64,000 nucleotides of DNA from Patescibacteria group bacterium (GTDB lineage Bacteria > Patescibacteriota > UBA1384 > DATEAH01): the NCBI GenBank assembly GCA_035288465.1, contig DATEAH010000005.1:3636-67635 (forward strand), read 5' to 3'. Positions 43,717-62,613 of this stretch are shown here, piece after piece (position 1 is the stretch's first letter; each line of letters starts with the position of its first letter). The notes beneath the pieces were generated by a model. That model worked only from the letters and a program-made list of their open reading frames with translations, was not told the origin of the DNA and ran no database searches. The position numbers and the translations under genes are program-made.

Positions 43717-44319
43717 TTATTTTATTTTGGCAATAATTACTAATCTTTTTTCCAAGGAACCTATCGGCCAGCAAGTCATTAAAGTTAATCTTTTCTCAAA
43801 AGTTTGCCCTAAAACTGAAAAATCATCAGGTTGAACAATTTTTTTCCCAATAACTTTGTATTCGTATTCTCGACTTTTATAAACCACTTTTATGGTATCA
43901 TCATCTTGCAGATCGTTTAAGTTAATAAAAATCTGGCGGTAATGGCCCCCAAAATCACTTGATGAATGCCCAAAGATAAAAATATTTCCAACCTTTCCCG
44001 GATAGGGTGTACCTGAATAATGGACAACGCCTTTTTTGAGCAATTTCTGATATAAATCTGGCTGGTTACTATCAGCTTCACCCGCAACTGGCACCCTGAC
44101 ATTGATTTTATCAATTTGAAGGCCAAATTTTTGGAAAGCGACTTCATCAATTTGAAGACTTGACTCGGCATTTTTTTCAGCATTAACTTTATTTGTTTTT
44201 TGAAATGGATTTTTAGGGTGCAATTTATAAAATATAGAATAGCCGATAATAAAATTAATTACCAAATAAACTAAAATCCCAGATGAAATTAGGAAAATCT
44301 GCTTTTTTTTATTGTTCAT
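43717..44319 (-). CDS. Sortase (transpeptidase)
   Basis: N-terminal TM; conserved His (IFIFGHSS) and catalytic Cys in an LTLMTCWP (TLxTC) motif. Confidence 0.85.
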   Translation of the reverse strand: MNNKKKQIFLISSGILVYLVINFIIGYSIFYKLHPKNPFQKTNKVNAEKNAESSLQIDEVAFQKFGLQIDKINVRVPVAGEADSNQPDLYQKLLKKGVVHYSGTPYPGKVGNIFIFGHSSSDFGGHYRQIFINLNDLQDDDTIKVVYKSREYEYKVIGKKIVQPDDFSVLGQTFEKRLTLMTCWPIGSLEKRLVIIAKIK

Positions 44320-45940
44320 AAATTCTTTTATATTTCCGTCGAATTAGCGATGCCATCATTAAAACCAAAGGAATAGATAATAGAATCGGGATAATAGGCT
44401 TATTGGAAGTGATTTTCCCAGTGGCTGGTAGGGTGGCTGCATCAATGTGCAGGCTCAATTGCCGATATACAAGTTGCTGTGGAGAGCCCGAATCTAAAAC
44501 AACAACATAAAAAGTATAATCACCGGCCACAGTTGGCGTCCCGTTAATTCGGCCTGAACTACTATCTAAAGATAAACCGGCCGGTAAGATGCCAAAATAA
44601 TCCTCACATTCTTCATCCCCGGGATTATATAAATTAAGATCTTTAAGCCCTTCTTTGAAAAGATCGGCTTCTTGTGGTTGCAAATCACCGTAATCAATTT
44701 GGCAAAAATATGAAGCGACATACCAGCTTAGCGGATTTGTGCCGGAATTTGACTCTAAGCTCGTCGAATAACTTGAACCTTGGGTTCCGTTTGGCAATTG
44801 AGTGGTGGTGATACTCAATAAATCTACTGGGCTTGACCGCCAAACCTCGGTGCCAGTACCGGCGTTAGAAAAAGCCACATAAAGCCTTTCATTAAAAGTG
44901 ACGGCAAATAAAGCATAATTTGCCGCACTGCCAAAACCATCGGTTTTTTCTTTTGTCCAAGTGGTACCATTAGTGCTGCGATACAATTGGGCACCAGTCA
45001 CCCCATTTCTGGTTCCGAGCCAAAATACTCCATTCACCACCGCCCCCTCATAACCTACCCAAATGTTGTTATCAGAACCAAAACCATCTGTATTAGCTTG
45101 AGTCCAAGCAGTGCCATTGGCTGATCGCCATAATTCCGTGCCGGTCGCAGAGTTTATTGTGCCGGCGTATAAATAACCATTGAATGATTGTAATAAATTG
45201 GTTGAAGAATTGGCAGCTGAACCAAAGCCGTTGGTATTTACTTGCGTCCAACTTTCTCCATCTAAGCTTCGATATATTTTCGTCCCAGTCGCATTGGTGA
45301 CTCCAGCATACAGATAACCGCCAAAAATACTCAAAGAACGAGTTGATGTATTAGCGGCAACGCCAAAACCATCAGTGTTGGTTTGGTCCCAGCTTGTGCC
45401 GTTTGTGGTTCGCCAAATTTCCGTACCTGTGGTGATATTTTCAGTTGCCACATATAAATATCCACCAAATGAGGCAACAGCTCTGGAACCTAAATTATTA
45501 GCATCGCCAAGTCCATCGGTGCCTGATTGTGACCAAGTCCCGGTGGCACCAGTGGCCGAACGCCAAACTTCTAAAACTCCGGCGCCGCTGGTGATGGTGG
45601 TGGCATAAAGATAACCTCCATGACCCACAAAAGCATGAATTTCATCATTATCAGCATTACTAAAACCGCCAGAGACAACTTGACTCCAAACCGTACCATT
45701 GGCTGATCGCCAAATTTGAGCACCAGCGGCAGTATTTGATACCCCGGCAAAAACATAGCCGCCATAAACATAAAGACGAATATCACCCCAGTTAGCGGCA
45801 TTACCAAAACCATCGTCATTAACTTGGCTCCAAGTATATAAATCAGCGGCTTTGGTGGTGGTGGGCAAAAACGAAAAAATAATAAAGAAACATATTAATA
45901 AATAAAAAACAATTCTTGGGCCGAATTTCGTTTTTCTCAT
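44309..45940 (-). CDS. LPXTG-anchored surface protein with ~8 tandem ~48-aa beta-propeller-like repeats and an Ig-like domain
   Basis: Signal peptide. Repeats WxQxNTDGFGxAANxxxxxLxxFxGYLYAGTxNxxTGTELWRSxNGTxW. C-terminal sorting signal LPATGK + hydrophobic segment + RRKYKR. Confidence 0.8.
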   Translation of the reverse strand: MRKTKFGPRIVFYLLICFFIIFSFLPTTTKAADLYTWSQVNDDGFGNAANWGDIRLYVYGGYVFAGVSNTAAGAQIWRSANGTVWSQVVSGGFSNADNDEIHAFVGHGGYLYATTITSGAGVLEVWRSATGATGTWSQSGTDGLGDANNLGSRAVASFGGYLYVATENITTGTEIWRTTNGTSWDQTNTDGFGVAANTSTRSLSIFGGYLYAGVTNATGTKIYRSLDGESWTQVNTNGFGSAANSSTNLLQSFNGYLYAGTINSATGTELWRSANGTAWTQANTDGFGSDNNIWVGYEGAVVNGVFWLGTRNGVTGAQLYRSTNGTTWTKEKTDGFGSAANYALFAVTFNERLYVAFSNAGTGTEVWRSSPVDLLSITTTQLPNGTQGSSYSTSLESNSGTNPLSWYVASYFCQIDYGDLQPQEADLFKEGLKDLNLYNPGDEECEDYFGILPAGLSLDSSSGRINGTPTVAGDYTFYVVVLDSGSPQQLVYRQLSLHIDAATLPATGKITSNKPIIPILLSIPLVLMMASLIRRKYKRIYEQ

Positions 45941-46169
45941 TTATCCCCCCTTTTTTTTGGTGATAAATTAAATAAATTTAGAACAACATATTCCTATATA
46001 TATTATAGAAAACCCTTTCCAAATGTCAAGCTGAAAAATACCCATGAAATAATTTATATAACGATTCTTAATATTTTATCTCGTTCAAATTTACAACTGA
46101 CGATGATTAGCCTAAATACGCTGAAAATATTCTTGACAATAATATAACAATTTGAGAAAATGGATTTAG

Positions 46170-46195
46170 ATACCTATACCATAGGTGCGGGTAAT
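46170..46195. promoter_or_regulatory. Operator-like palindrome ATACCTATACCATAGGTGCGGGTAAT upstream of csoR
   Basis: 6-bp inverted repeat ACCTAT-acc-ATAGGT plus a GGGTA element. Resembles known CsoR operators of the ATACC...GGGGGTAT type, but this comparison is from memory. Confidence 0.35.
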
Positions 46196-46520: not shown

Positions 46521-48242
46521 ATGCCAAAAACAATTGTACCGATTAGGGGAATGCATTGTCGTTCTTGCGAAATATTAATAGAAGATGAAATATTAAAACT
46601 TAGCTGGGTCAAAAAAGTTGAAGTCTCACATCAAAAAGCACAAGCTAAGATTTATTATCGCCATAAATTTGATTATTCGGCAGTTGAAAAAGCAATTTCA
46701 AAAGCAGGCTATAGGTTAGGCAATTCCAATAAAAAACAATTTATTTCTAAGAATCCTCAAGATTTTATTGATTTGGTAATTGCCGCAATTTGTCTTTTAG
46801 GATTATTTTTGTTTCTGAAAAAAACTGGTTTAATCAATATCAAATTTGCGTCATCACCAAGTTTAACTAATATATCTGGAGCTTTATTAATTGGAATATT
46901 GGCTGGATTTTCGACCTGTATGGCGTTAGTGGGTGGTTTAATTTTGGGAATATCTGCCCGACATTCAGAAAAGCATCCCAACGCTTCGACCTGGCAAAAA
47001 TTTCGTCCTCATCTCTTTTTTAATCTTGGCAGAATCGCTTCTTTCTTTATCTTAGGTGGCTTGATAGGATTTGCAGGCTCAGCTTTACAGCTTTCAAGCA
47101 GGATATCCGGAACTTTAATGATTGGGGTGGGATTATTAATGCTAACATTAGGCATTCAGCTCACCGAAATTTTTCCCAAGATTAGTTCTGGAAGATTTAC
47201 TCTACCTAAAGGTATTTCTCAAATTTTGGGAATTAAAAAACGAGAACAACTGGAATACAGTCATAAAAATGCCGTAATTTTGGGGGCCGCCACTTTTTTT
47301 CTACCTTGCGGTTTTACACAAGCAATGCAATTATTGGCGGTGAGTTCGGGAAAATTTTTAGTGGGTGCTGAAATTATGGCCTTATTTGCAATTGGGACCA
47401 GCCCAGGATTATTGGGAATTGGTGCTTTAACTTCAGTTTTTAAGGGGACGATGGCTAAAAAATTTTTCAAGTTTGCCGGATTAGCAGTAATTTCCTTAGC
47501 GCTCTTAAATATTGTAAACGGCTATCATCTTTTGGGTTGGAAATTCTCCTCAAAAAAAGCACCAATCGCCAATGCTCAGGATCCAAATGTTAAAATTGAA
47601 AACGGAATCCAAAAGATTTATATGGTACAAAAAAGTTCGGGATATGCTCCCGACCATTTTACAATTCAAAGGGGAATTTCTACCCAGTGGATAATCAATT
47701 CCGAAGATGCTTCTTCTTGTGCTTCCGCAATTACTGCTCCTGACCTTGATATCAAGAAAATTTTAAAACTTGGTGAAAATATCATTGAATTCACGCCTCA
47801 AAAAACTGGCGAAGTTGGATTTTCTTGTTTAATGGGAATGTATCGAGGTTATTTTTCCATTATTGAAAAAAAAGATTCTCAAGATACACAAACCCAAACA
47901 CAAAATCAAAAACCGAAAACGGAATCCGAAGTTACTCCTCCAAAAACTAATCCGGCGCCAATTACGAATGAGCAAATCATCAAAACGACTTATACTCTCA
48001 ATGAAGATATTGTTCCAAAACAATTCATGGTTCAAGCTGGACTGCCAGTCCGTTTTGAAATAGACGTCAAGGAAGATGGCCAAGGCTGTATGAGCACAAT
48101 CGGAATTCCAAAATTAATAGATGAGCCCCAATTTTTAGAAAAAGGCAAAACAATCGTTTTCACTTTTACGCCCGAAGAACCTGGGGACTATTATATTACT
48201 TGTGCAATGGGATCAATTAGAGGCAAAATTTCAGTAAAATAA
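46521..48242 (+). CDS. Fusion protein: N-terminal HMA metal-binding domain + DsbD_2/UreH-like multi-TM permease with two conserved TM cysteines + two C-terminal cupredoxin-like domains
   Basis: GMHCRSCE (MxCxxC); TM segments with FSTCMALVGG and FFLPCGFTQAMQ; tandem C-terminal domains ending GEVGFSCLMGMYRGYFSII and GDYYITCAMGSIRGKISV. Confidence 0.6.
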   Translation: MPKTIVPIRGMHCRSCEILIEDEILKLSWVKKVEVSHQKAQAKIYYRHKFDYSAVEKAISKAGYRLGNSNKKQFISKNPQDFIDLVIAAICLLGLFLFLKKTGLINIKFASSPSLTNISGALLIGILAGFSTCMALVGGLILGISARHSEKHPNASTWQKFRPHLFFNLGRIASFFILGGLIGFAGSALQLSSRISGTLMIGVGLLMLTLGIQLTEIFPKISSGRFTLPKGISQILGIKKREQLEYSHKNAVILGAATFFLPCGFTQAMQLLAVSSGKFLVGAEIMALFAIGTSPGLLGIGALTSVFKGTMAKKFFKFAGLAVISLALLNIVNGYHLLGWKFSSKKAPIANAQDPNVKIENGIQKIYMVQKSSGYAPDHFTIQRGISTQWIINSEDASSCASAITAPDLDIKKILKLGENIIEFTPQKTGEVGFSCLMGMYRGYFSIIEKKDSQDTQTQTQNQKPKTESEVTPPKTNPAPITNEQIIKTTYTLNEDIVPKQFMVQAGLPVRFEIDVKEDGQGCMSTIGIPKLIDEPQFLEKGKTIVFTFTPEEPGDYYITCAMGSIRGKISVK

Positions 48243-48270: not shown

Positions 48271-50541
48271 ATGAAAAAAGAAATTTATAAGATTGAGGGT
48301 ATGCACTGCGCTTCATGCGCGGCAAATATTGAACATCGGCTCGCCAAAGAATCAGGCATTCATAAAGCAAATGTTAATTTTGCCGTGGAAAAACTTTACT
48401 TAGATTACGACGAGAACATCATTAGTTTTGATCAGATTGAGAAAATAATTAATAGTTTAGGGTATAAATTATTCCCGGAAAAATCAGACGATGAAACTGG
48501 CAAAATGGATCATCAAAATCACGAACAAGACCAAAGCCATGCAGATCATAAACATACCGAACCAACCAAAGAAAAAGAAATTCAAAAACTCCGTCAACGC
48601 TTTTTAATTTCCCTAATCTTTGGTTTGCCCATCATCTACATGGTCATGGGTAAAATGCTCCAGGCGCCGATACCGATGTTTTTAGAAAAAAATACCATCC
48701 TCTTGGAATTTATTTTAGCGACGATTATTATTGGCGCTTCGATTACAATTTGGCTTTCCGGAATCAAAGAATTATTAAGGTTTCGACCGGGCATGGATTC
48801 TCTTATTTTCATCGGCACAGTTGCTGCTTATATTTATAGTATTATAATCTCAATAAGTATCATGATGGGAAAACAAATTGGAACAATGGATAATTTGTAT
48901 TATGAAAGTGCGGCCTTTATTTTAATTTTTATTAATTTAGGGAGATATTTAGAGGCTGCGACTAAGGGCCGCACCAGCTTAGCAATTAAAAGATTGATGG
49001 GCTTAGCGCCAAAATATGCTTTAGTGATAAAAAACGGGCAAGAAATAAAAATCCCAATTTCTGAAGTTGTACCCGGCAATATAGTTTTGGTTAAACCCGG
49101 TGCTAAAATCCCAGTTGATGGTGTTGTCATTGATGGATATTCAGCGGTTGATGAAAAAGCCATTACTGGGGAAAGCATTCCAGCGGAAAAAAATAAAGGT
49201 GATAAAGTGATCGGCGCGACCATTAATAAAACCGGGGTTTTAAAAATTAAAGCCCAACATGTTGGTAAAGACACAGTTTTGGCACAAATTATTAAAATCG
49301 TTGAAGAAGCGATGGGTTCTAAAGCCCCCATCCAATTATTGGCGGATAAGGTTTCTTTTTATTTTGTCCCAGCAGTTATTGTAATCGCCCTTATCTCAGC
49401 TTTAATCTGGTTGCTTTTGGGCTTTTCTTTTTCTTTTAGCCTCACAATTTTTGTGGCAGTTTTAATAATTGCCTGCCCTTGTGCCTTAGGATTAGCAACT
49501 CCAACCGCAATTATGATGGGTTCTGGCTTAGCGGCGCAAAGAGGTATTTTAATTAAAAATGGCGAAGCCCTGGAAAAAGCCCAAAAAATTAATTTTGTTG
49601 TTTTCGATAAAACTGGGACATTAACAAAAGGGGAACCTAAAGTTGTTGATATTATTGAAATTGGGGGAGATAAATCAACAATTTTAAAACTCGCAGCCAG
49701 CATCGAAAAAAATTCAGAACATCCCTTAGCCCAAGCAATTATTAATAAAGCAAAATTGGAAAAAATCGAATTATATAATCCCACTGATTTTCAAGCCGTC
49801 CCAGGCCAAGGAGTTAAAGCCAAAATTGATAATAAAGAAATTCTTTTAGGAACTCGGAAATTATTGCAGGAAAATAAAATCAATATTAATGAATTTGAAA
49901 AGAATATTAGTAATCTTGAAAATTTGGGCAAGACGGTGATTATTTTGGCTTTTGGCGAAAAAGTTCAAGGTTTATTAGCCTTAGCTGATACGTTAAAAGA
50001 AAATTCCCAAAAAGCGATTAAACTGCTTCATGAAAATGGTATTAAAACCGCCATTCTCACCGGCGATAATGCACGGGTCGGCAAAGCAATTGCTAAAGAA
50101 GTTGGCATTGACAAAGTATTGGCTGAGGTATTACCTCATGAAAAAGCGGCTAATATTAAAAAATTACAAAAACAGGGTTGGAAAGTGGCAATGGTTGGTG
50201 ATGGCATTAATGATGCGCCAGCTTTAGCTCAAGCTGATTTGGGGGTTGCTTTAGGTTCTGGCACAGATGTTGCTATGGAAACTGGCGAACTAATCTTGAT
50301 TAAAAATAATCTTTTGGATGTCGTCACCGCAATTGATTTATCAAAATATACTTTGCGCAAAATTAAACAAAATCTTTTTTGGGCGTTTTTTTACAATATT
50401 ATTAGTATCCCGGTGGCGGCGGGTTTGCTTTATCCTTTTTTTGGTTGGATTTTAAATCCCTCAATTGCCGCGGCCGCGATGGCATTTTCTTCGGTTTCGG
50501 TGGTCACCAACGCCCTCTTAATGAAAGGATATAAGAAATGA
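48271..50541 (+). CDS. copA: Copper-translocating P1B-type ATPase
   Basis: N-terminal HMA GMHCASCA; TM CPC motif (ACPCALGLATP); DKTGTLT; GDGINDAP. Confidence 0.93.
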   Translation: MKKEIYKIEGMHCASCAANIEHRLAKESGIHKANVNFAVEKLYLDYDENIISFDQIEKIINSLGYKLFPEKSDDETGKMDHQNHEQDQSHADHKHTEPTKEKEIQKLRQRFLISLIFGLPIIYMVMGKMLQAPIPMFLEKNTILLEFILATIIIGASITIWLSGIKELLRFRPGMDSLIFIGTVAAYIYSIIISISIMMGKQIGTMDNLYYESAAFILIFINLGRYLEAATKGRTSLAIKRLMGLAPKYALVIKNGQEIKIPISEVVPGNIVLVKPGAKIPVDGVVIDGYSAVDEKAITGESIPAEKNKGDKVIGATINKTGVLKIKAQHVGKDTVLAQIIKIVEEAMGSKAPIQLLADKVSFYFVPAVIVIALISALIWLLLGFSFSFSLTIFVAVLIIACPCALGLATPTAIMMGSGLAAQRGILIKNGEALEKAQKINFVVFDKTGTLTKGEPKVVDIIEIGGDKSTILKLAASIEKNSEHPLAQAIINKAKLEKIELYNPTDFQAVPGQGVKAKIDNKEILLGTRKLLQENKININEFEKNISNLENLGKTVIILAFGEKVQGLLALADTLKENSQKAIKLLHENGIKTAILTGDNARVGKAIAKEVGIDKVLAEVLPHEKAANIKKLQKQGWKVAMVGDGINDAPALAQADLGVALGSGTDVAMETGELILIKNNLLDVVTAIDLSKYTLRKIKQNLFWAFFYNIISIPVAAGLLYPFFGWILNPSIAAAAMAFSSVSVVTNALLMKGYKK

Positions 50542-51029
50542 AAATGTTTGGTATTTTTATCGCGATCATTTCCATCATCATTATTGCCGCAGTTTGGATA
50601 GGTTCATCTGTTTCAGAATCATCAACGCCAACTTATTCTAAAGATGACCCCAACCGCCCGAATGTAAAGTTGTCGGAAAAGTCTTTTGACTTTGGCGAAA
50701 TAAACATTAAAGAAACTCGAGATCATATTTTTAAAATTACCAATGTCGGTAAAAGTGATTTAAACCTGTCCAGAGTTTCCACATCCTGCGATTGCACATA
50801 TGCTTATATCATCAACGCGAATGGCGAACAAAGCCCAAAATTTTCGATGCATGACACTAGTTCTTGGCAAATGGCCCTTAAGCCTCAGGAATCAGCGAGC
50901 TTAAAAGTATATTATAAACCTTCAATTATGCCAGTTGAGGGCGCTGTTGATCGCACCATCAATGTTGTCACCAATGACCCGACAAATCCTAACCTTGAAA
51001 TAAAAATTACAGCCACGGTGGTAAAATGA
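50538..51029 (+). CDS. DUF1573-like membrane-anchored protein
   Basis: FDFGEINIKETRDHIFKITNVGKSDLNLSRVSTSCDCT matches the DUF1573 pattern (FDFG...N.G...L.I..V..SCGCT), as recalled from memory. Confidence 0.55.
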   Translation: MKMFGIFIAIISIIIIAAVWIGSSVSESSTPTYSKDDPNRPNVKLSEKSFDFGEINIKETRDHIFKITNVGKSDLNLSRVSTSCDCTYAYIINANGEQSPKFSMHDTSSWQMALKPQESASLKVYYKPSIMPVEGAVDRTINVVTNDPTNPNLEIKITATVVK

Positions 51030-51697
51030 ACCTATGGCCACTTTTTTTAGCCGGCATTACTGATTCATATAACCCTTGCAGTATTGGCGTTTTACTAATA
51101 TCCTTGACAATTCTTTTCAGTTTAGGTCGGAAAAAATTAATTGCTTTGTTTGGCTTAAGTTATTTGGCGACAATTTTTACCACCTATTTTTTAATCGGCT
51201 TGGGATTGTTGCGCGCTTTTCACCTTTTTGGAATTCATGGCTTTTTCGGATATGCCGCAGGTGTAATTTTAATTGTGGCTGGGTTGATTCATTTGGCGCC
51301 TGGACCAATTAGAAACTTACCCGGGATCCGCTGGATTCTGGGCTGCCACCTTCCCAAAAATATCGAAAAACACCTTGAAAATAGTGTTTTTATTTCTGGA
51401 ATAATTTTAGGTTTTTTGATTGGTTTGTGCACGGTACCATGCGCGGGCGGAATCTATTTAGGCGCGATTGGTTTATTGGCAAGCCGAGTTAGTTATTGGC
51501 GCGGGGTCTTGGGAATCTTTATTTTTAATCTCGGTTTTATTCTGCCATTATTGGCAATATTTTTAGTGGCAAGCCGCAAGTCGGTTTTAGAAAAACTCCA
51601 AAAACTCAATGTTAAACTTAGCTCATATAGTCACTATATTATCCCAATCATAATGATTTTAATGGGAATTATCCTAATTTTAATCGCGAAAAAATAA
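51026..51697 (+). CDS. ccdA: CcdA/DsbD-family thiol-disulfide transmembrane transporter
   Basis: Six predicted TM helices; conserved Cys in TM1 (YNPCSIGV) and TM4 (CTVPCAGG). Confidence 0.7.
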   Translation: MNLWPLFLAGITDSYNPCSIGVLLISLTILFSLGRKKLIALFGLSYLATIFTTYFLIGLGLLRAFHLFGIHGFFGYAAGVILIVAGLIHLAPGPIRNLPGIRWILGCHLPKNIEKHLENSVFISGIILGFLIGLCTVPCAGGIYLGAIGLLASRVSYWRGVLGIFIFNLGFILPLLAIFLVASRKSVLEKLQKLNVKLSSYSHYIIPIIMILMGIILILIAKK

Positions 51698-51863: not shown

Positions 51864-52805
51864 TTAGATTCCTTTTTGTTTTAAGATTTTGGCATGAATT
51901 GATATGGCGGCTAAGGCACCTTCGCCGCCAGCCACAATCGCTTGGTCTGGACCTTCGTTAACTGGACCTGTGGCATATAAATTTTTAACTGAGGTTTCGA
52001 AAGTTTCAAAATTTACTTTTAAAAATCCGTCCTCATCTCTTTTTGGTTTTAGACCACCTCGAGCTAAAAATCCATCCAAATGGACATAGCCTAATTCGGT
52101 AAATAAAACTTCGGCTTCGACTTTCGTGCCGTCTTTAAGCTGGATTTTTTGCAAATACCCATTTCTACCTTTAAGTTTGGTAATTGGGCTTGAAAATACG
52201 GCAATTTGGTTCTTTTTCGCTTTTTGTACCATTTTCTTGGAAAATTTGGTGGGAACGGCGGGTACGACCGCAAGTTTAGGCGGTTTTTGCATCGAATTAA
52301 TAGCCAAAGCAGTGGTAATAGCTGAGTCGCCATTACCAATCACGGCAATTTTTTTATGGCGGTTTTGATACCAATCACAAGTCAAACAATGAAAAATCGA
52401 GTGGTCATAATACGGATCAAGGCCGGAAATCTCAGGCATTTTGTCAATTAAACCCACTGCCACGACCAAATATTGAGCTTGATATTTTTTGCCAGTATCA
52501 GTAATAACCAAAAATTGGCCTTGGTTATTTTGGCTGACTTTGAGGACTTTTTCTGAAATTCTGGAAATTGGAAATCTGGCCAATTGCTTATCAATTCTGG
52601 CTAAAAAATCTGTGCCTGAGGTTTTTCGCCTATGGCCTAAAAAGTTTTCAATTGTGGTCGCCATTGAAGTGCGGCCATGAACCTTAATGCCGGCATCAAT
52701 TAATATCACCGGATGATTATAACGAGCTAAATAAATAGCCACTGATGAACCGGCAGGTCCAGCACCAATAATAATGGTTTTTTCGCTTGGATTATTTTTT
52801 GCCAT
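51864..52805 (-). CDS. Thioredoxin-reductase-like FAD/NAD(P)-dependent oxidoreductase
   Basis: GAGPAGSSVAIYLA FAD-binding motif; CLTC redox-pair candidate; second Rossmann motif IAVIGNGDSA. Confidence 0.75.
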   Translation of the reverse strand: MAKNNPSEKTIIIGAGPAGSSVAIYLARYNHPVILIDAGIKVHGRTSMATTIENFLGHRRKTSGTDFLARIDKQLARFPISRISEKVLKVSQNNQGQFLVITDTGKKYQAQYLVVAVGLIDKMPEISGLDPYYDHSIFHCLTCDWYQNRHKKIAVIGNGDSAITTALAINSMQKPPKLAVVPAVPTKFSKKMVQKAKKNQIAVFSSPITKLKGRNGYLQKIQLKDGTKVEAEVLFTELGYVHLDGFLARGGLKPKRDEDGFLKVNFETFETSVKNLYATGPVNEGPDQAIVAGGEGALAAISIHAKILKQKGI

Positions 52806-57986: not shown

Positions 57987-58267
57987 TTTTATTCTCCTTG
58001 TTCAATTAAATCTTCGACTTTGGATTTGGCTTGTTCGAGTAATTCTTTGGATTTTTGACGCGCTATAATTCTTCGATTCTAATGAACTTTAAATTTTCCT
58101 TTTCCACCGGCATCGTGTCGCCATTTTCAAGACAAATATCAAATAAATAGGTTTTAGGATTCGCCCAATTTTCCATTTCTACTAACCCGTCCCCGTACTT
58201 ACTTTTGACTTTTACACCCATCATCTCAACCCTCCTCTTTAATTAAACTTTCAACTTTTATTTTTAT

Positions 58268-58740
58268 TTATATTCCTTTTATTGTATTTTTATTGCAAAG
58301 ATTCATTAAATCACTCCTAATATATTCATCGCGCCAGTCAGTTAGTTTTATTGGCTTGAATGGCAATTCCTTTTTAAGAATTTTCATTGCATAAACTATT
58401 AAACTTTTATTACCATTTCTAATAAATATTCCTTTATTCGTATCTTCTCTTACACAAGCTTCGATTCCATTACAAATATTATTCTGTTTATTTTTAAATT
58501 CTTTAATAGTAAATTTTTTATATAATTTTTTAATTTTACAAACAATACAATTATCGGTTCCCCAATTAAAATTATTATTAAAAAATTTTGCCGTATCTTG
58601 AATATTTTGAACCCTATAATCTTTACCTGTTTTTTCTTTAATAGTTTTTTAATATTATTCCAATTACAATCGTCGTCCGAATTTAATTCATAATAAACTA
58701 TTGCATTATAGAAATCACTTAATTTCTTAATTTTATTCAA
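58268..58740 (-). pseudogene. Hypothetical gene disrupted by a -1/+1 frameshift in an A-run (or sequencing indel)
   Basis: Frame 1 is protein-like only to ...IKKLLK, then low-complexity. An alternative frame from the A-run (~58625-58641) gives a protein-like 120-aa continuation ...TGKDYRVQNIQDTAKFFNNNFNWGTDNCIVCKIKKLYKKF... Confidence 0.35.
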
Positions 58741-58810
58741 TTATTTTTTAACTCCCAAATATTTTGCCGTGAGTAAAATCTAATGAGAACTATCCACATC
58801 AAATAGTTAA

Positions 58811-59263
58811 TTATTCTGACACAATTTTATATACTTTCTCGCATGCCGAAATTAATTTTGATGAATATTCTTGATTTAAAAATGTTGCTTCATGTACAAA
58901 TAAATTTCTATACTTTACTGACATTTTAAAAAAATCCCAATCTATCCCCAATTCATTTTTAATATTCACATGTTTAATCCCGAAAACCAGATTGACTAAT
59001 CGGATTACTTTTGTATTACGATATTTTTCATATTTTTCTTCTACAGTTAATGAATTATCATCAGAATGGATAATAATACTTCGAGAAACTGCCTCAATCA
59101 AAGAACATAATAATGCCACATCTTTTATCCCAACATCAAAATATTGATAAAGTTGATTAGCTATATTAATTCGTGATTTTGATGGTACAGAATAATATTT
59201 TCTTCGTAATTCAATAACATGACGTTGCATTTCCATCAAAAGCTGTTGGTCATCATTACTCAT
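58811..59263 (-). CDS. Hypothetical protein with HEPN-like Rx4H motif (RNLFVHE)
   Basis: 150 aa, helical; R-x4-H near the C-terminal third. Weak assignment. Confidence 0.4.
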   Translation of the reverse strand: MSNDDQQLLMEMQRHVIELRRKYYSVPSKSRINIANQLYQYFDVGIKDVALLCSLIEAVSRSIIIHSDDNSLTVEEKYEKYRNTKVIRLVNLVFGIKHVNIKNELGIDWDFFKMSVKYRNLFVHEATFLNQEYSSKLISACEKVYKIVSE

Positions 59264-59290
59264 TTTTGATTTCCTTATTAAATTTTCTCA

Positions 59291-59761
59291 CTAATTTTTG
59301 TTTAATTTTTCCATTACATCAACAGCATGGCCAATTGTAATTTTTTTATCCCGGATATTTATATCAACGATATATTCTCCAATGGGATCTCCTGCAGTAC
59401 TCTTCATTAAACAAACAAGATAGGCAAAACTATTCTTATCCAATTTTGATATAAGCCAACAAGATTCAAAATAATTGCAATCTATTTTTTTAGATAGCGA
59501 AGGAATTAATATTTGACCATTTTTATCAGAAAAAATTATTAACCCATATCCCTCGGCATAATGTTTTCCCTTTTTGGTTTTTTTATTTATTGCATCAATT
59601 ATTGCCATTTCAAGATCACCTTGAATAAATCTAGGTATAAAAACTTGTTCAAATGCAATACCAACCGGGATATTATTTTTATCGAATCCAATAATATTTC
59701 CATCTCGACCGTCGGGATCTGATGAAGGTACAACTAACACCGGAGATATAATGACCCACAC
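59291..59761 (-). CDS. Hypothetical protein; N-terminus may be supplied by the overlapping ORF 59679..59939 (frameshift near 59755-59775)
   Basis: Both ORFs look protein-like only in their non-overlapping parts. Confidence 0.35.
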   Translation of the reverse strand: MWVIISPVLVVPSSDPDGRDGNIIGFDKNNIPVGIAFEQVFIPRFIQGDLEMAIIDAINKKTKKGKHYAEGYGLIIFSDKNGQILIPSLSKKIDCNYFESCWLISKLDKNSFAYLVCLMKSTAGDPIGEYIVDINIRDKKITIGHAVDVMEKLNKN

Positions 59762-59961
59762 AGCACACTATAATAAGTCCAAAAAGTTCACGAAATAATA
59801 AATCCATTTTCTCTATTTTTTTTGAAGAATAGAGTATATCCGGATTTTTTAATAATTCCGGAATAATTATCTTTTCCAGTATTACTTCTACTGACTTCGC
59901 TGCTATTATTTTTTTATTTATGCCAAATTTTTTTATCATAACTATTCCTTAAATTTTTTAA

Positions 59962-60198
59962 TTAAATTTTGCCGATTTTTCTCCTTGCCTTGTGAATCCT
60001 CATGTGTTTTATCTTTGTCACAACACGTGTTCCCTTAGAAGTAGTTTTTCCTCCCTCAACGATAGGTTTGACGTGGTGCAAAACTTTACCTTTGGGTAAT
60101 TTGCCTTTATTATAACCTTTTTGTTTAAGAACTTTTTTAATTTTTAATGGATTTCTTTCTTTTTTAATTTGTTTTTTAGATAGTTTTCTTTTCTTCAT
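59962..60198 (-). CDS. Small basic HNH-endonuclease-like protein
   Basis: LHHVKPIVEGGKTT...HMRIHKARR fits the HNH pattern (HH..P...GG...H..H). Start taken at the ATG preceded by an AAGGAG RBS; the ORF track begins 10 codons upstream at GTG. Confidence 0.5.
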   Translation of the reverse strand: MKKRKLSKKQIKKERNPLKIKKVLKQKGYNKGKLPKGKVLHHVKPIVEGGKTTSKGTRVVTKIKHMRIHKARRKIGKI

Positions 60199-60292
60199 TC
60201 CATACTCCTTTTTATATAAGTTATCCACAGATTGACTTTCGATTTATTTTCGATTATATTTTAATTATAATGCGTAAAAAAGGGGGTGTCAA

Positions 60293-61855
60293 ATGATCAC
60301 TAAACGCCAAAAACAAGTTCTCGAATTTATTAAAAAATTCATTAGAACGCATGACTACGCTCCCTCTTTAGAAGAAATTAAAAAGCACCTCAATCTTTCT
60401 TCTGTTTCTACTGCCCATCATCATATTTCAAAACTATACAATAAAGGATTTATTAATAGATTAAAAAATAATCCACGAGCGATCGAACTTGTTGAGACTA
60501 AAAAACTAAATTTAATTAAAATCCCTATTGTGGGAACAATAGCTGCGGGTCAACCGATTGAAGCGATAGAAGTTCCTGGTCAGTCAGTGACTCTATCACG
60601 AGATGAAATTGGAAAATTCGGAAATTTTTATGCTCTGAAAGTTGACGGCAATAGTATGATCGACGAAGGTATATTTGATGGTGACTTTGTAATAATTCGC
60701 AGACAAGAAACTGCTGATAATGGACAGACGGTCGTGGCGATTATTGATGATAACGAAGCTACCCTTAAAAAAATTTATAAAGAAAATAAAAGAATTAAAT
60801 TACAGCCAGCGAATCAGGTTATGCTACCTATCTTTCGAAAAGAGGTAAAAATTCGTGGTGTAGTGGTTAAAATCATCAGAAACTTAGAAAATAGCGTTCA
60901 GGATAATACACTGGCTTATAAAAAGAAAATATTATTAAATCGCATTAGAAGTTCTAATCCTAATAGTAGCAATAAATATAAAAGAGTTGCTCTTTCAACA
61001 ATAAGATATGCTGGTGGGAAAAGCTTGGCAGTTGGACATGTGATTGAATTGTTGCCAGACAATATCGAAAAGGTTATTTCTCCGTTTTTTGGTGGTGGTT
61101 CAATTGAAATAGCTATGAGCAAAGAGCTAGATTTGGAAGTAGTAGGTTATGATATATTTGATATCCTTTGCAATTATTGGAAATTTCAGATAGAAAAACC
61201 GAAACTTCTTTATGAAAAATTAAAAGTACTAGAACCAAATAAAAAAACTTTTGAGAAAATTAGATTAATCTTGAATAAAGTATGGAAAAAAAGAATAAAG
61301 TTAGACCCTATAACATTAGCGGTTTATTATGTTTATAACTTTAACTTATCATATGGCCCAGGATTTATGGGTTGGGCTTCTGATATTTATTTAAATGAGA
61401 AAAAATATAATAGAGTAATTAAAAAAATTAGAGACTTTGATCCTAAAAATTTACGGGTTAAATGTGAAGATTTCCAAAAAGTAATCAAGAATCACCCAAA
61501 TGATTTTCTTTATTGTGATCCTCCATATTATATTGGAAAGGATTCAAAAATGTTTAAAGGAATATATCCGATGAGGAATATTCCTGTCCATCATAATGGA
61601 TTCCCACATGAGGCATTAAGAGATTTGCTGAAGAAACACAAGGGTGGCTTTATTTTATCCTATAACAATTGTTCGACAATAAGGGAATACTACAAAGAGT
61701 TCCAACAAGTATTTCCAAGTTGGCAGTACACAATGGGACAAGGAGAAACAAGAATAGGCCAAAATCGCATTAATAATGGGAGTAAAAATCATATAAAGTC
61801 ATCTCATGAAATAATTATTTACAATTTGCCAAAGAATAAATTTTATAATTCTTGA
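60293..61855 (+). CDS. Fusion: complete LexA repressor (wHTH + S24 autopeptidase) + Dam-family N6-adenine DNA methyltransferase
   Basis: LexA hallmarks: ITKRQKQVLEFI, cleavage-site IVGTIAAGQP (Ala-Gly), nucleophile VDGNSM, GDFVIIRR...GQTVVAIIDDNEATLKKIYK (catalytic Lys), VVVKIIRN. ~35-aa linker. Dam hallmarks: RYAGGKS (AdoMet motif I), CDPPYY (motif IV). One 520-aa ORF, no in-frame stop. Confidence 0.8.
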   Translation: MITKRQKQVLEFIKKFIRTHDYAPSLEEIKKHLNLSSVSTAHHHISKLYNKGFINRLKNNPRAIELVETKKLNLIKIPIVGTIAAGQPIEAIEVPGQSVTLSRDEIGKFGNFYALKVDGNSMIDEGIFDGDFVIIRRQETADNGQTVVAIIDDNEATLKKIYKENKRIKLQPANQVMLPIFRKEVKIRGVVVKIIRNLENSVQDNTLAYKKKILLNRIRSSNPNSSNKYKRVALSTIRYAGGKSLAVGHVIELLPDNIEKVISPFFGGGSIEIAMSKELDLEVVGYDIFDILCNYWKFQIEKPKLLYEKLKVLEPNKKTFEKIRLILNKVWKKRIKLDPITLAVYYVYNFNLSYGPGFMGWASDIYLNEKKYNRVIKKIRDFDPKNLRVKCEDFQKVIKNHPNDFLYCDPPYYIGKDSKMFKGIYPMRNIPVHHNGFPHEALRDLLKKHKGGFILSYNNCSTIREYYKEFQQVFPSWQYTMGQGETRIGQNRINNGSKNHIKSSHEIIIYNLPKNKFYNS

Positions 61856-62613
61856 AATTTAGAAATCGCTCTACCGTGGACTAAAACATTATTATATTTA
61901 ATTTTTATTTTATTAATTTTATTTTTTAATAAATTTAGTGTTTTTTCTCGACTCATCCAAAATTTGATTTCTCTATAATGCACATCACTATCATTTCTAA
62001 GTTCAATTTCGCCAATAGTTACACCCTTATTAATCAATATAAAAATAACTTTTTGAGCATCCATCTGCCCAATTCTTTTTGCTTTTGAATTTGAAATCGT
62101 GGTAGAATTATCAAGGGCTTCGATAGCTTCATACCCATCAAAAACATGAAATTGATGATTTTCTTTAATGGTTAAATAATCAACTTCTCCATTATTCAAA
62201 AATGCTTTTTTGAAAAAAATAATTTTGTTTTGCCCTTTATTTAAATATTTACTTAAATTTTTCATTGCAATAGTCAGTAATTCCTTAAACTTTATTTTAT
62301 TTAGTAAATATTTATCTCTAGATGAGGGGAAACAATTAAGACAATCACGAAGAAAATTTGATCCTTGGAAATCAATATCAGTCATTAACCTATTATAACC
62401 ATATAAGAATATTTGCCATTTTTTCTCTCCACTTTTCACGGAATGTATATCACCACGTTTGTCTATTACATCTTTTTTCTTGCCACTACCATGCGTTTTA
62501 CCCCCGATTATACACGCAAATTCTTTTTCGGCATCATGACCACGCTGTCTTACCATCCTAGCATTTTCAGAAGTCATTGCACGACGTTTTATTATTGTAT
62601 TCTTTTGATCCAT
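61843..62613 (-). CDS. Hypothetical protein (256 aa); candidate restriction endonuclease partner of the methyltransferase
   Basis: Convergent with, and overlapping by 13 nt, the 3' end of the LexA-MTase gene. No confident motif (possible D...EIELR). Confidence 0.5.
   Translation of the reverse strand: MDQKNTIIKRRAMTSENARMVRQRGHDAEKEFACIIGGKTHGSGKKKDVIDKRGDIHSVKSGEKKWQIFLYGYNRLMTDIDFQGSNFLRDCLNCFPSSRDKYLLNKIKFKELLTIAMKNLSKYLNKGQNKIIFFKKAFLNNGEVDYLTIKENHQFHVFDGYEAIEALDNSTTISNSKAKRIGQMDAQKVIFILINKGVTIGEIELRNDSDVHYREIKFWMSREKTLNLLKNKINKIKIKYNNVLVHGRAISKFQEL

Follow-up and report, generated by a model that had tools for sequence, protein, structure and literature searches.

The accepted components of bacterial copper export are P1B ATPases, resistance-nodulation-division (RND) systems and soluble or tethered chaperones. 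CupA of Streptococcus pneumoniae is a tethered chaperone whose membrane anchor matters for function and which has been described as confined to a few streptococci (PMC5646241, PMC7558416). Its cupredoxin domain, held in the cytoplasm behind one N-terminal helix, binds two Cu(I) ions, at S1 (C74/C111) and at S2 (C74/M113/M115) (PMC5646241, PMC7558416; the ligands are also documented in PMC5552934), and its gene lies just upstream of a copA that encodes an isostructural N-terminal domain. In gut Firmicutes, the HMA-DsbD_2(-DUF2318) proteins of COG2836 are predicted members of the CsoR regulon together with copA (PMC4938975), and ScsB, which belongs with DsbD and CcdA, has been linked to copper tolerance (PMC3322552). 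Here we describe a gene that joins parts of these systems in one polypeptide. It occupies positions 46521-48242 of a 64,000-nucleotide stretch of Patescibacteria DNA (hereafter the window: assembly GCA_035288465.1, contig DATEAH010000005.1, positions 3,636 to 67,635) and encodes an HMA domain, an extra transmembrane (TM) helix, a cysteine-bearing DsbD_2/UreH-like core and two CupA-type cupredoxin domains (Table 1). We tentatively propose that its product is a Cu(I) thiolate relay working with CopA, in which Cu(I) would pass from the HMA domain through a TM Cys pair to external CupA sites; this is our preferred reading, although we hold it with less than even confidence.

The fusion protein shares with S. 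pneumoniae CupA and the CopA N-terminal domain the cupredoxin fold, the membrane tether and a location just upstream of copA under a copper repressor. Unlike CupA, however, it carries its Cup domains C-terminal to seven TM helices and, by prediction, outside the cell, the domain is duplicated with a variant second site, the repressor is CsoR instead of CopY, and at its N terminus the partner CopA bears an HMA and not a cupredoxin domain; moreover, the family spans hundreds of species of the candidate phyla radiation (CPR), in contrast to the reported streptococcal confinement of CupA. With DsbD, CcdA and ScsB the protein shares the Pfam clan, a 6-TM core, one essential-looking Cys in each half (one of them in a Pro-Cys) and, as in DsbD, extracytoplasmic cysteine-pair domains fused to the core. 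It departs from them in that the first Cys stands in S-T-C and not in P-C, in that metal-chaperone domains of the HMA and CupA types replace thioredoxin or Ig-like redox domains, in the lack of a thioredoxin-fold partner (an HMA partner is found instead in six of six split contexts, described below) and in the presence of a separate CcdA-like gene in the same operon. The COG2836 proteins come close, with their HMA domain, DsbD_2 core and predicted CsoR regulation together with copA, but their C-terminal module is DUF2318 and not a CupA-type cupredoxin. Because it lacks the single-anchor cytoplasmic topology and the cupredoxin-bearing CopA partner of CupA, as well as the thioredoxin partner of DsbD, the fusion falls outside both families; its parts (HMA, DsbD clan and CupA fold) are known, and the combination is best called one that belongs to neither family without being categorically new. 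In the literature searched, from which most subscription journals were absent, the architecture was not described except, for the related group, in the CsoR meta-regulon paper (PMC4938975), and we found no report of CupA-type domains with intact ligands outside streptococci or predicted to be external, of a Cup fusion to a Cys-bearing DsbD_2 core and HMA, or of an equivalence of split and fused forms across phyla.

The domain content was established by a Pfam profile search with curated cut-offs (24.8 bits for HMA, 24.9 for DsbD_2 and 27 for Cupredoxin_1). The protein matched HMA (PF00403) at residues 6-64 with 34.6 bits, DsbD_2 (PF13386) at residues 121-328 with 109.8 bits (E 2e-31, profile positions 2-198 of 199) and Cupredoxin_1 in two stretches with 67.7 bits (E 1e-18). 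A first-pass annotation, made by a model from the letters alone, had proposed a cytoplasmic MxCxxC metal-binding domain, a DsbD_2/UreH-like membrane domain with Cys residues in TM helices and two cupredoxin-like C-terminal domains, and had named a search for these three profiles as its own test; all three parts were borne out, the last being refined to the CupA type. The cysteines stand in the contexts MHCRSC (C13/C16), FSTCMA (C133), FLPCGF (C263), FSCLMG (C436) and ITCAMG (C561). The motif that had been drawn up for the ends of both C-terminal domains, G-x-[YF]-x-[FI]-[ST]-C-x-M-G, is exact in domain 2 (GDYYITCAMG), whereas in domain 1 (GEVGFSCLMG) Val replaces the [YF] of the third position. 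The AlphaFold model of the full-length fusion had a mean pLDDT of 82.7 and a pTM of 0.67, and in the AlphaFold2 (AF2) model the HMA domain showed the order beta-alpha-beta-beta-alpha at pLDDT 83-97. This domain is 36% identical to the HMA domain of the neighbouring CopA and also gave weak matches to MerTP and MerP models. The Pfam search returned no thioredoxin-fold domain in the fusion protein.

Conservation was assessed in two sets of close relatives, of 40 and 120 sequences, and in 79 diverse representatives with 28-51% identity. C13, C16, C133, P262, C263, C400, C436, M438 and M440 were, apart from a few Gly, Arg and Pro residues, the only invariant columns in the diverse set, and C523-M524, C561 and M563 were additionally invariant in the close set. 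The match is far beyond chance: the E-values of the domains lie between 1e-8 and 1e-31, and no candidate ligand residue varies among the 79 diverse relatives. HMA and DsbD_2 were present in every one of these relatives and Cupredoxin_1 in 75; DsbD_TM was also matched in 10.

As judged by alignment and model, the C-terminal domains are CupA-type Cu(I) chaperone domains and not generic cupredoxins, with Cu(I) binding predicted. When residues 357-449 were compared with the PDB by phmmer, domain 1 matched 4F2F, the metal-binding domain of S. pneumoniae CopA, at E 2.8e-11 and CupA (2MRY/4F2E) at E 2.3e-10, and its ligands C400...C436-L-M438-G-M440 were aligned with those of CupA. By Foldseek, the model superposed on CupA 4F2E with a TM-score of 0.87 and a root-mean-square deviation (rmsd) of 1.2 A over 92 columns, and on 4F2F with a TM-score of 0.86, at 28-34% identity, as expected for the eight-stranded beta-sandwich of CupA. 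Domain 2 is 35% identical to domain 1 (E 8e-13) and matched CupA at E 4e-4 with the Cys residues aligned. Its sequence, C523-M524...C561-A-M563-G-S, holds the CupA ligand set in part, the second Met of CxMxM being replaced; the invariant Met after the first Cys may stand in for the one that is lost. Laccases and NirK, which appeared beside CupA in the full-length Foldseek search, had TM-scores of 0.1-0.27 and an rmsd above 10 A and were rejected as tandem-domain artefacts. Filamin matches to domain 2 were likewise set aside, as they fell below the Pfam cut-off and reflect a generic Ig-like sandwich similarity, whereas CupA aligns with the cysteines matched. The stretch that corresponds to the linker between the two domains is Cys/Gly-rich in 31 of 120 close homologues (for example GSCGGSGGGCGGCGGG) and could there be an extra external metal-binding or metallothionein-like element; two homologues carry a third Cup domain.

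In the core, the invariant residues are C133 in TM2 (S-T-C-M) and P262-C263 in TM5 (FFLPCGFTQAMQ), and the two cysteines are its only invariant side chains of chemical interest. Pro precedes C263 only, C133 lying in S-T-C and not in a Pro-Cys, and the TM5 motif FFLPCGFTQ is strongly conserved. In the AF2 models the helices break at residues 130-131 (TM2) and 261-263 (TM5), just ahead of each invariant Cys, a modelled geometry that corresponds to the discontinuous-helix arrangement typical of substrate sites. The two halves of the core, compared with each other by BLASTP, gave an E-value of 0.05, so that a 3+3 internal repeat was not detectable in this way.

Seven hydrophobic helices, TM1 (residues 79-102) and the six of the DsbD_2 core, were found both by hydrophobicity and in the AF2 model. 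The N-terminal tail contains 16 Lys and Arg residues, and the loops TM2-3, TM4-5 and TM6-7 contain 4, 7 and 4, whereas each of the three remaining loops has one, and the HMA domain starts at residue 5, without a signal peptide. The odd number of TM helices, the positive-inside charge bias and the lack of a signal peptide place the HMA domain inside and the Cup domains outside; both the sequence and the model thus predict a cytoplasmic HMA domain and extracytoplasmic CupA-type domains. Homologues in which the HMA domain is a separate protein point the same way. These split forms lack TM1 and have 6 TM helices, with 4/4/2, 2/8/2 and 5/5/2 Lys and Arg residues on loops 1/3/5 and none on loops 2/4, a distribution indicating that they are N-out/C-out with the Cup domain at the C terminus. 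The HMA proteins adjoining them have no signal peptides, and joining a cytoplasmic HMA protein to an N-out 6-TM core requires exactly the extra helix that the fused form has. In addition, one relative, P0182, continues past its Cup domain with ScsC_N and DsbA, which are extracytoplasmic domains, and this supports an outside location of the Cup domains. The extracytoplasmic placement put forward in the first-pass annotation therefore agrees with four lines of prediction: the seven helices, the charge bias, the split homologues and the ScsC/DsbA variant.

The gene is the second of five tightly spaced, co-directional genes: csoR is separated from it by a 10-nt gap and copA by a 28-nt gap, and a DUF1573 gene and a CcdA-like gene follow, each with a 4-nt overlap that translationally couples DUF1573 to copA and the CcdA-like gene to DUF1573. 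The placement between csoR and copA, already noted in the first reading, was supported for both neighbours by profile matches and motifs. CsoR has the ligands C32/H57/C61 at the canonical spacing of 25 and 4 residues, and CopA has the motifs CPC402, YN708, MAFSS737 and DKTGT446 and, in Pfam, a single N-terminal HMA domain (52.8 bits) with no Cupredoxin_1 match. A C-H-C CsoR, P1B-1 ATPase motifs and tight co-directional spacing are the features of a CsoR-regulated cop operon, regulation being predicted. The candidate operator, immediately after a promoter-like sequence upstream of csoR, holds the inverted repeat ACCTAT-ACC-ATAGGT and a TACC...GGGTA pseudo-palindrome; from its letters, ATACCTATACCATAGGTGCGGGTA appears to resemble the G-tract pseudo-palindromic operators of CsoR. 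The window's operon has no separate copZ, which some relatives encode; the HMA domain of the fusion is retained even where CopZ is present. The DUF1573 protein has an N-terminal anchor; together with the CcdA-like protein, which is probably the operon's own reductant conduit, it appears to make up a second thiol system, separate from the first, within the operon. A thioredoxin-reductase-like flavoprotein gene (51864-52805, minus strand; HCLTC motif; 165.6 bits against a TrxR equivalog cut-off of 343) converges on the operon; it is absent from all 80 related loci described next, so that its adjacency is probably coincidental.

The association with copA recurs widely, which supports the link to copper. 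In 80 related loci surveyed by tblastn with the window's own proteins, a CopA core lay within 6 kb in 74 and directly downstream on the same strand in 60, and csoR was found just upstream in at least 28, a lower bound because the query has only 90 aa. DUF1573 was found in 14 of these loci (it also occurs in loci L003 and L004) and the CcdA-like gene in 7. Among the scored candidates, 4107 proteins matched the fusion at E<=1e-5, and the best 120 all had the same architecture at 48-57% identity; among 1.84 billion representatives, 5157 clusters (50% identity) matched at E<=1e-3 and 974 at E<=1e-30, many of the clustered relatives being of about 450 aa with a single Cup domain. Matches were found in at least 600 GTDB species genomes, and the best 80 belong nearly all to CPR lineages, including the complete WWE3 genome CP006914.1. 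The architecture had at first been called unusual; this holds relative to the literature only, as it is very common in CPR bacteria. Many GTDB records with a CPR-type locus (L007, L011, L013, L020 and others) bear the title 'uncultured Gammaproteobacteria/Pseudomonadales/Bdellovibrionales bacterium'; as their proteins are 47-52% identical to those of CPR and the context is CPR-like, such titles seem to be placeholder taxonomy and unreliable. The public entry for the identical protein reads 'sulfite exporter TauE/SafE family protein [Patescibacteria group bacterium]'. We rejected this name, since no TauE match was found in Pfam or NCBIfam at E<=0.1 and the context is one of copper and not of sulfur; the label, which thousands of homologues bear, looks over-generalised and hides the copper-related architecture.

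Relatives also occur in cultured or enriched organisms. Acetoanaerobium noterae (Clostridia; NZ_CP154629.1, locus L091, 3953-5425) encodes an HMA-TM-DsbD_2-Cup protein (C...C-W-M-G-M) directly upstream of copA, and its first Cys helix reads H-C-L-T-M-C-G-G, with two Cys, a His and a Met, where CPR proteins have S-T-C-M-A-L-V-G-G. The motif HCxxMCGG was found in just 2 of 150 representatives besides this protein, and we regard it as supporting evidence only. NZ_CP154629.1 is labelled 'plasmid', yet has 2.63 Mb and 4 annotated features and is probably a chromosome. In the split form, a DsbD_2-Cup protein (C...C-[GS]-M-G-M) is followed immediately by an HMA protein of 72-85 aa, as was seen in all six contexts from cultured or enriched organisms. 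This module was found in heavy-metal and mercury loci of Actinobacteria, Deinococcus and Chloroflexota, carried on plasmids from Tsukamurella, Streptomyces (two cases), Mycolicibacterium, Deinococcus and Ca. Chlorohelix. Its neighbours include a heavy-metal P-type ATPase (4 of the 6 contexts), merA (Tsukamurella), merB/MerR (Deinococcus), YHS (Chlorohelix) and MerR/ArsR regulators, and canonical CcdA and TlpA or peroxiredoxin are encoded separately nearby. On the Tsukamurella plasmid NZ_LR134469.1 (L088, 5031-7912), the module immediately precedes merA and a multicopper oxidase gene, and on the Deinococcus plasmid (L090) it lies near merB/MerR. In mer loci without merT/merP, the split module may be an unrecognised mercury transporter. 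The relative P0182 (720 aa, Ala-rich and non-CPR-looking) has the order HMA-DsbD_2-Cup-ScsC_N-DsbA with an intact NCSYC active site, the single thioredoxin-fold (DsbA/ScsC) fusion among the 79 diverse relatives; read from its domains, it would tie the family to the thiol chemistry of Scs-type copper tolerance.

The results above establish which domains the protein has, how well their ligands are conserved, its predicted topology, its place in the operon and its recurrence; on this basis we propose the following course of events for a Cu(I) relay beside CopA. The first-pass annotation had suggested a dedicated Cu(I) relay or sequestration route, with which all the evidence agrees. A rise in cytoplasmic Cu(I) would lead CsoR to release the operon. 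The cytoplasmic HMA domain (C13/C16) would bind Cu(I) and exchange it with the similar HMA domain of CopA, and TM1 would carry the chain across the membrane to the 6-helix core, where one invariant Cys in each half (C133 and P262-C263) would lie at the mid-membrane helix breaks. Cu(I) could then pass by ligand exchange from the HMA domain to the TM Cys pair, through alternating access, and on to the external CupA sites. Displayed on the cell surface, the two CupA-type domains would offer a binuclear site (C400/C436 and C400/M438/M440) and a variant Cys/Met site, and Cu(I) bound there would be held away from the membrane and from re-entry. The logic would be that of MerP-MerT-NmerA, or of the MerTP and MerT-CopZ fusions, in which a soft metal is exchanged between outside, membrane and cytoplasmic-HMA cysteine pairs, a likeness to which the weak MerTP/MerP matches and the split relatives in mer loci can be added. 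The proposed relay differs from the mer relay in its membrane part, which has no homology to MerT, in having a cupredoxin and not an HMA domain on the outside, and in its proposed cargo and direction, Cu(I) and outward. CusF with E. coli CopA, CopL of S. aureus copBL and CueP/ScsC of Salmonella are likewise surface or periplasmic Cu(I) binders that accompany a P1B ATPase and limit extracytoplasmic copper damage, but their folds are unrelated and, as far as is generally known, fusion to a Cys-bearing polytopic membrane domain and a cytoplasmic HMA domain occurs in none of them (PMC5552934, PMC5947656).

That Cu(I) is the cargo of the core, that it moves outward and how its movement is energized are points that we infer. 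In favour of the relay, both soluble ends belong to Cu(I)-handling types of module and lie, by prediction, on opposite faces of the membrane, the candidate ligands are invariant, and the order csoR-fusion-copA recurs in relatives. The obligatory HMA partner, fused or adjacent, argues for a metal cargo. The CcdA systems encoded separately in the same loci, the window included, and the His/Cys/Met/Cys motif of the distant Acetoanaerobium branch argue for metal rather than electrons, as do two relatives of the core: many metal exporters belong to the LysE superfamily, of which DsbD is a member (PMC4608589), and Ni is transported by permeases of the UreH family (PMC2667541).

Several observations weigh against the relay. 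A profile of the core, searched against all PDB sequences, found no solved relative, its sole match being a spurious one to a Holliday-junction resolvase (E 0.27), and a Foldseek search with a mediocre TM-only AlphaFold model (pLDDT 66.8) returned nothing better than E 0.08 or a TM-score of 0.29; with this model, structural kinship to CcdA or to metal transporters is neither shown nor excluded. A Met-thioether Cu(I) site in the membrane, formed by M134 and M269, was considered and rejected because both residues vary in diverse relatives and are kept only among close ones, so that thioethers lend no extra support to a membrane Cu(I) site. The energy source for outward movement of Cu(I) is not evident, and next to a pump driven by ATP a passive relay seems superfluous. 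From the mercury-locus contexts one would expect import and not export. Moreover, a single invariant Cys in either half, with Pro before one of the two, is exactly the redox signature of DsbD and CcdA and fits electron transfer equally well, the ScsC_N-DsbA extension of P0182 with its intact CxxC points to thiol-redox chemistry, and CupA itself is reported to reduce Cu(II) via C74/C111, for which it needs an unknown re-reductant (PMC5646241).

These last points lead to a DsbD-like reductant conduit, which we regard as the main rival and as somewhat less probable than the relay. The TM Cys pair would move reducing equivalents outward and keep the external CupA-type cysteines reduced; the reduced Cup domains would bind the Cu(I) that CopA pumps out, with reduction of Cu(II) as a further possibility, forming a surface sink like CopL, CueP or CusF, and the HMA domain would be a copper-sensing or CopA-docking module. 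Membership of the core in the DsbD clan (DsbD_2 at 110 bits, with the DsbD_TM matches noted above) speaks for it, as does the use of a cysteine pair at each station, a feature shared with the DsbD cascade; ScsB-type DsbD proteins also serve copper-tolerance oxidoreductases (PMC3322552). The thioredoxin-reductase-like gene near the operon would fit as well, but none of the 80 related loci has it. The obligatory cytoplasmic partner is HMA and not thioredoxin, a thioredoxin-fold fusion is limited to P0182, and a second generic conduit would be redundant where CcdA with TlpA or peroxiredoxin, or the CcdA-like gene of the window, is encoded separately. It also counts against the conduit that the habitats of many CPR hosts are anoxic and that thiols outside the cell need little protection there.

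In a second alternative, which we judge improbable, the protein is a chaperone tethered at both faces of the membrane: the HMA domain, like a membrane-tethered CopZ, would feed CopA from inside, the CupA-type domains would take Cu(I) at the pump exit as CusF does with E. coli CopA, and nothing would cross the core, which would be an anchor or have an unrelated role. The position of copA immediately downstream in most related loci, the resemblance of the fusion's HMA domain to that of CopA, the missing copZ of the window's operon and the tethering of CupA itself all agree with this, and a hand-off from CopA to CusF is cited in PMC5552934. A mere anchor, however, would not hold C133 and P262-C263 invariant at 28-51% identity, or conserve FFLPCGFTQ; a single helix is enough to anchor CupA, and CopZ-encoding relatives retain the HMA domain nonetheless. 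Least probable, in our view, is an inward MerT/MerP-like relay, in which external Cup domains would catch Hg(II) or Cu(I) and pass it through the TM Cys pair and the HMA domain to a cytoplasmic sink (MerA in mercury loci, cuproenzymes or CopA in copper loci): the merA and merB/MerR neighbours of the split module, the weak MerTP/MerP matches, uptake by UreH-family permeases (PMC2667541) and the tendency of passive ligand exchange to run to the side with the stronger sink favour it, but the window and most relatives pair the protein with a Cu(I) exporter under a CsoR-type repressor, where import of copper in excess would be self-defeating, the ligands of the external site are those of CupA, Met included, and specific for Cu(I), and merA is adjacent in just one of the six annotated contexts examined.

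If the outward Cu(I) relay is correct, chaperones for inside and outside copper linked through a Cys-bearing DsbD-like core would be a new component of copper export, CPR/Patescibacteria, with their minimal genomes and no cultured genetics, would have a defined and apparently near-universal copper-defence accessory, and the CupA paradigm would extend far beyond streptococci and to the outside face of the membrane. More broadly, and with slightly more reserve than for the relay itself, the family may represent an unrecognised class of ATP-independent thiophilic-metal transporters on the DsbD/LysE scaffold, a Cu(I) 'bucket brigade' in one polypeptide (two when split), with the module re-used for mercury in actinobacterial and Deinococcus mer loci and the CupA fold widespread and extracellular. 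With this family one can cleanly test whether metal ions, and not electrons, can be carried by DsbD-type scaffolds, and its recognition corrects the misleading TauE/SafE name. Since Acetoanaerobium, Streptomyces, Tsukamurella, Mycolicibacterium and Deinococcus are cultured, the hypothesis is directly testable in these relatives.

Table 1. The fusion gene, its domains and the surrounding copper operon (positions in the window)
Feature	Position	Strand	Basis and remarks
Fusion gene, HMA - TM1 - DsbD_2 core - CupA-type domain 1 - linker - CupA-type domain 2	46521..48242	+	573 aa, ATG start
HMA domain, predicted cytoplasmic (residues 6-64), GMHCRSC	46536..46712	+	Pfam HMA; C13 and C16 invariant
Extra helix TM1 (residues 79-102)	46755..46826	+	Strongest hydrophobic peak, 2.51; helix in model
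DsbD_2/UreH-like 6-TM core (residues 118-337)	46872..47531	+	Pfam DsbD_2, 109.8 bits
CupA-type cupredoxin domain 1 (residues 357-448)	47589..47864	+	Predicted ligands C400 ... C436-x-M438-x-M440
Disordered Q/T/P/K-rich linker (residues 454-481)	47880..47963	+	pLDDT <50
CupA-type domain 2 (residues 485-572)	47973..48236	+	Predicted variant ligands C523-M524 ... C561-x-M563
Sigma-70-like promoter, TTGACA-17-GAAAAT with TG, upstream of csoR	46133..46161	+	Consensus scan 10/12; pattern match only
Candidate CsoR operator ATACCTATACCATAGGTGCGGGTA	46170..46194	+	Read from sequence; immediately after promoter
csoR-type Cu(I)-sensing repressor, 90 aa	46238..46510	+	PF02583, 53.5 bits
copA, Cu(I)-type P1B ATPase	48271..50541	+	TIGR01511, 614 bits; Pfam E1-E2_ATPase/Hydrolase/HMA
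Membrane-anchored DUF1573 Ig-like protein, S-C-D-C motif	50538..51029	+	PF07610, 54.7 bits; weak OS_HP2 selenoprotein-family match
CcdA-like 6-TM protein, 223 aa, NPCS and VPCAGG motifs	51026..51697	+	Weak DsbD_TM, ArsG-family and DsbD model matches

Elsewhere in the window, a sortase gene lies directly downstream of, and overlaps, the gene for a 543-aa repeat-rich surface protein with a He_PIG domain (43717-45940, minus strand). At the end of the surface protein, LPATG precedes a hydrophobic anchor and a basic tail, the arrangement for cell-wall sorting of the Gram-positive style, here in a CPR genome; the presence of this pair upstream of the cop operon, on the other strand, fits a single-membrane, Gram-positive-like envelope. 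At 58001-62000 the G+C content falls to 0.28-0.30, compared with a window average of about 0.37, with a strong negative GC skew at 58-60 kb, and this stretch may be foreign or intergenic-rich DNA. Just upstream of it lies an IS200/IS605-type Y1 transposase gene (PF01797; 56106-56753, minus strand).

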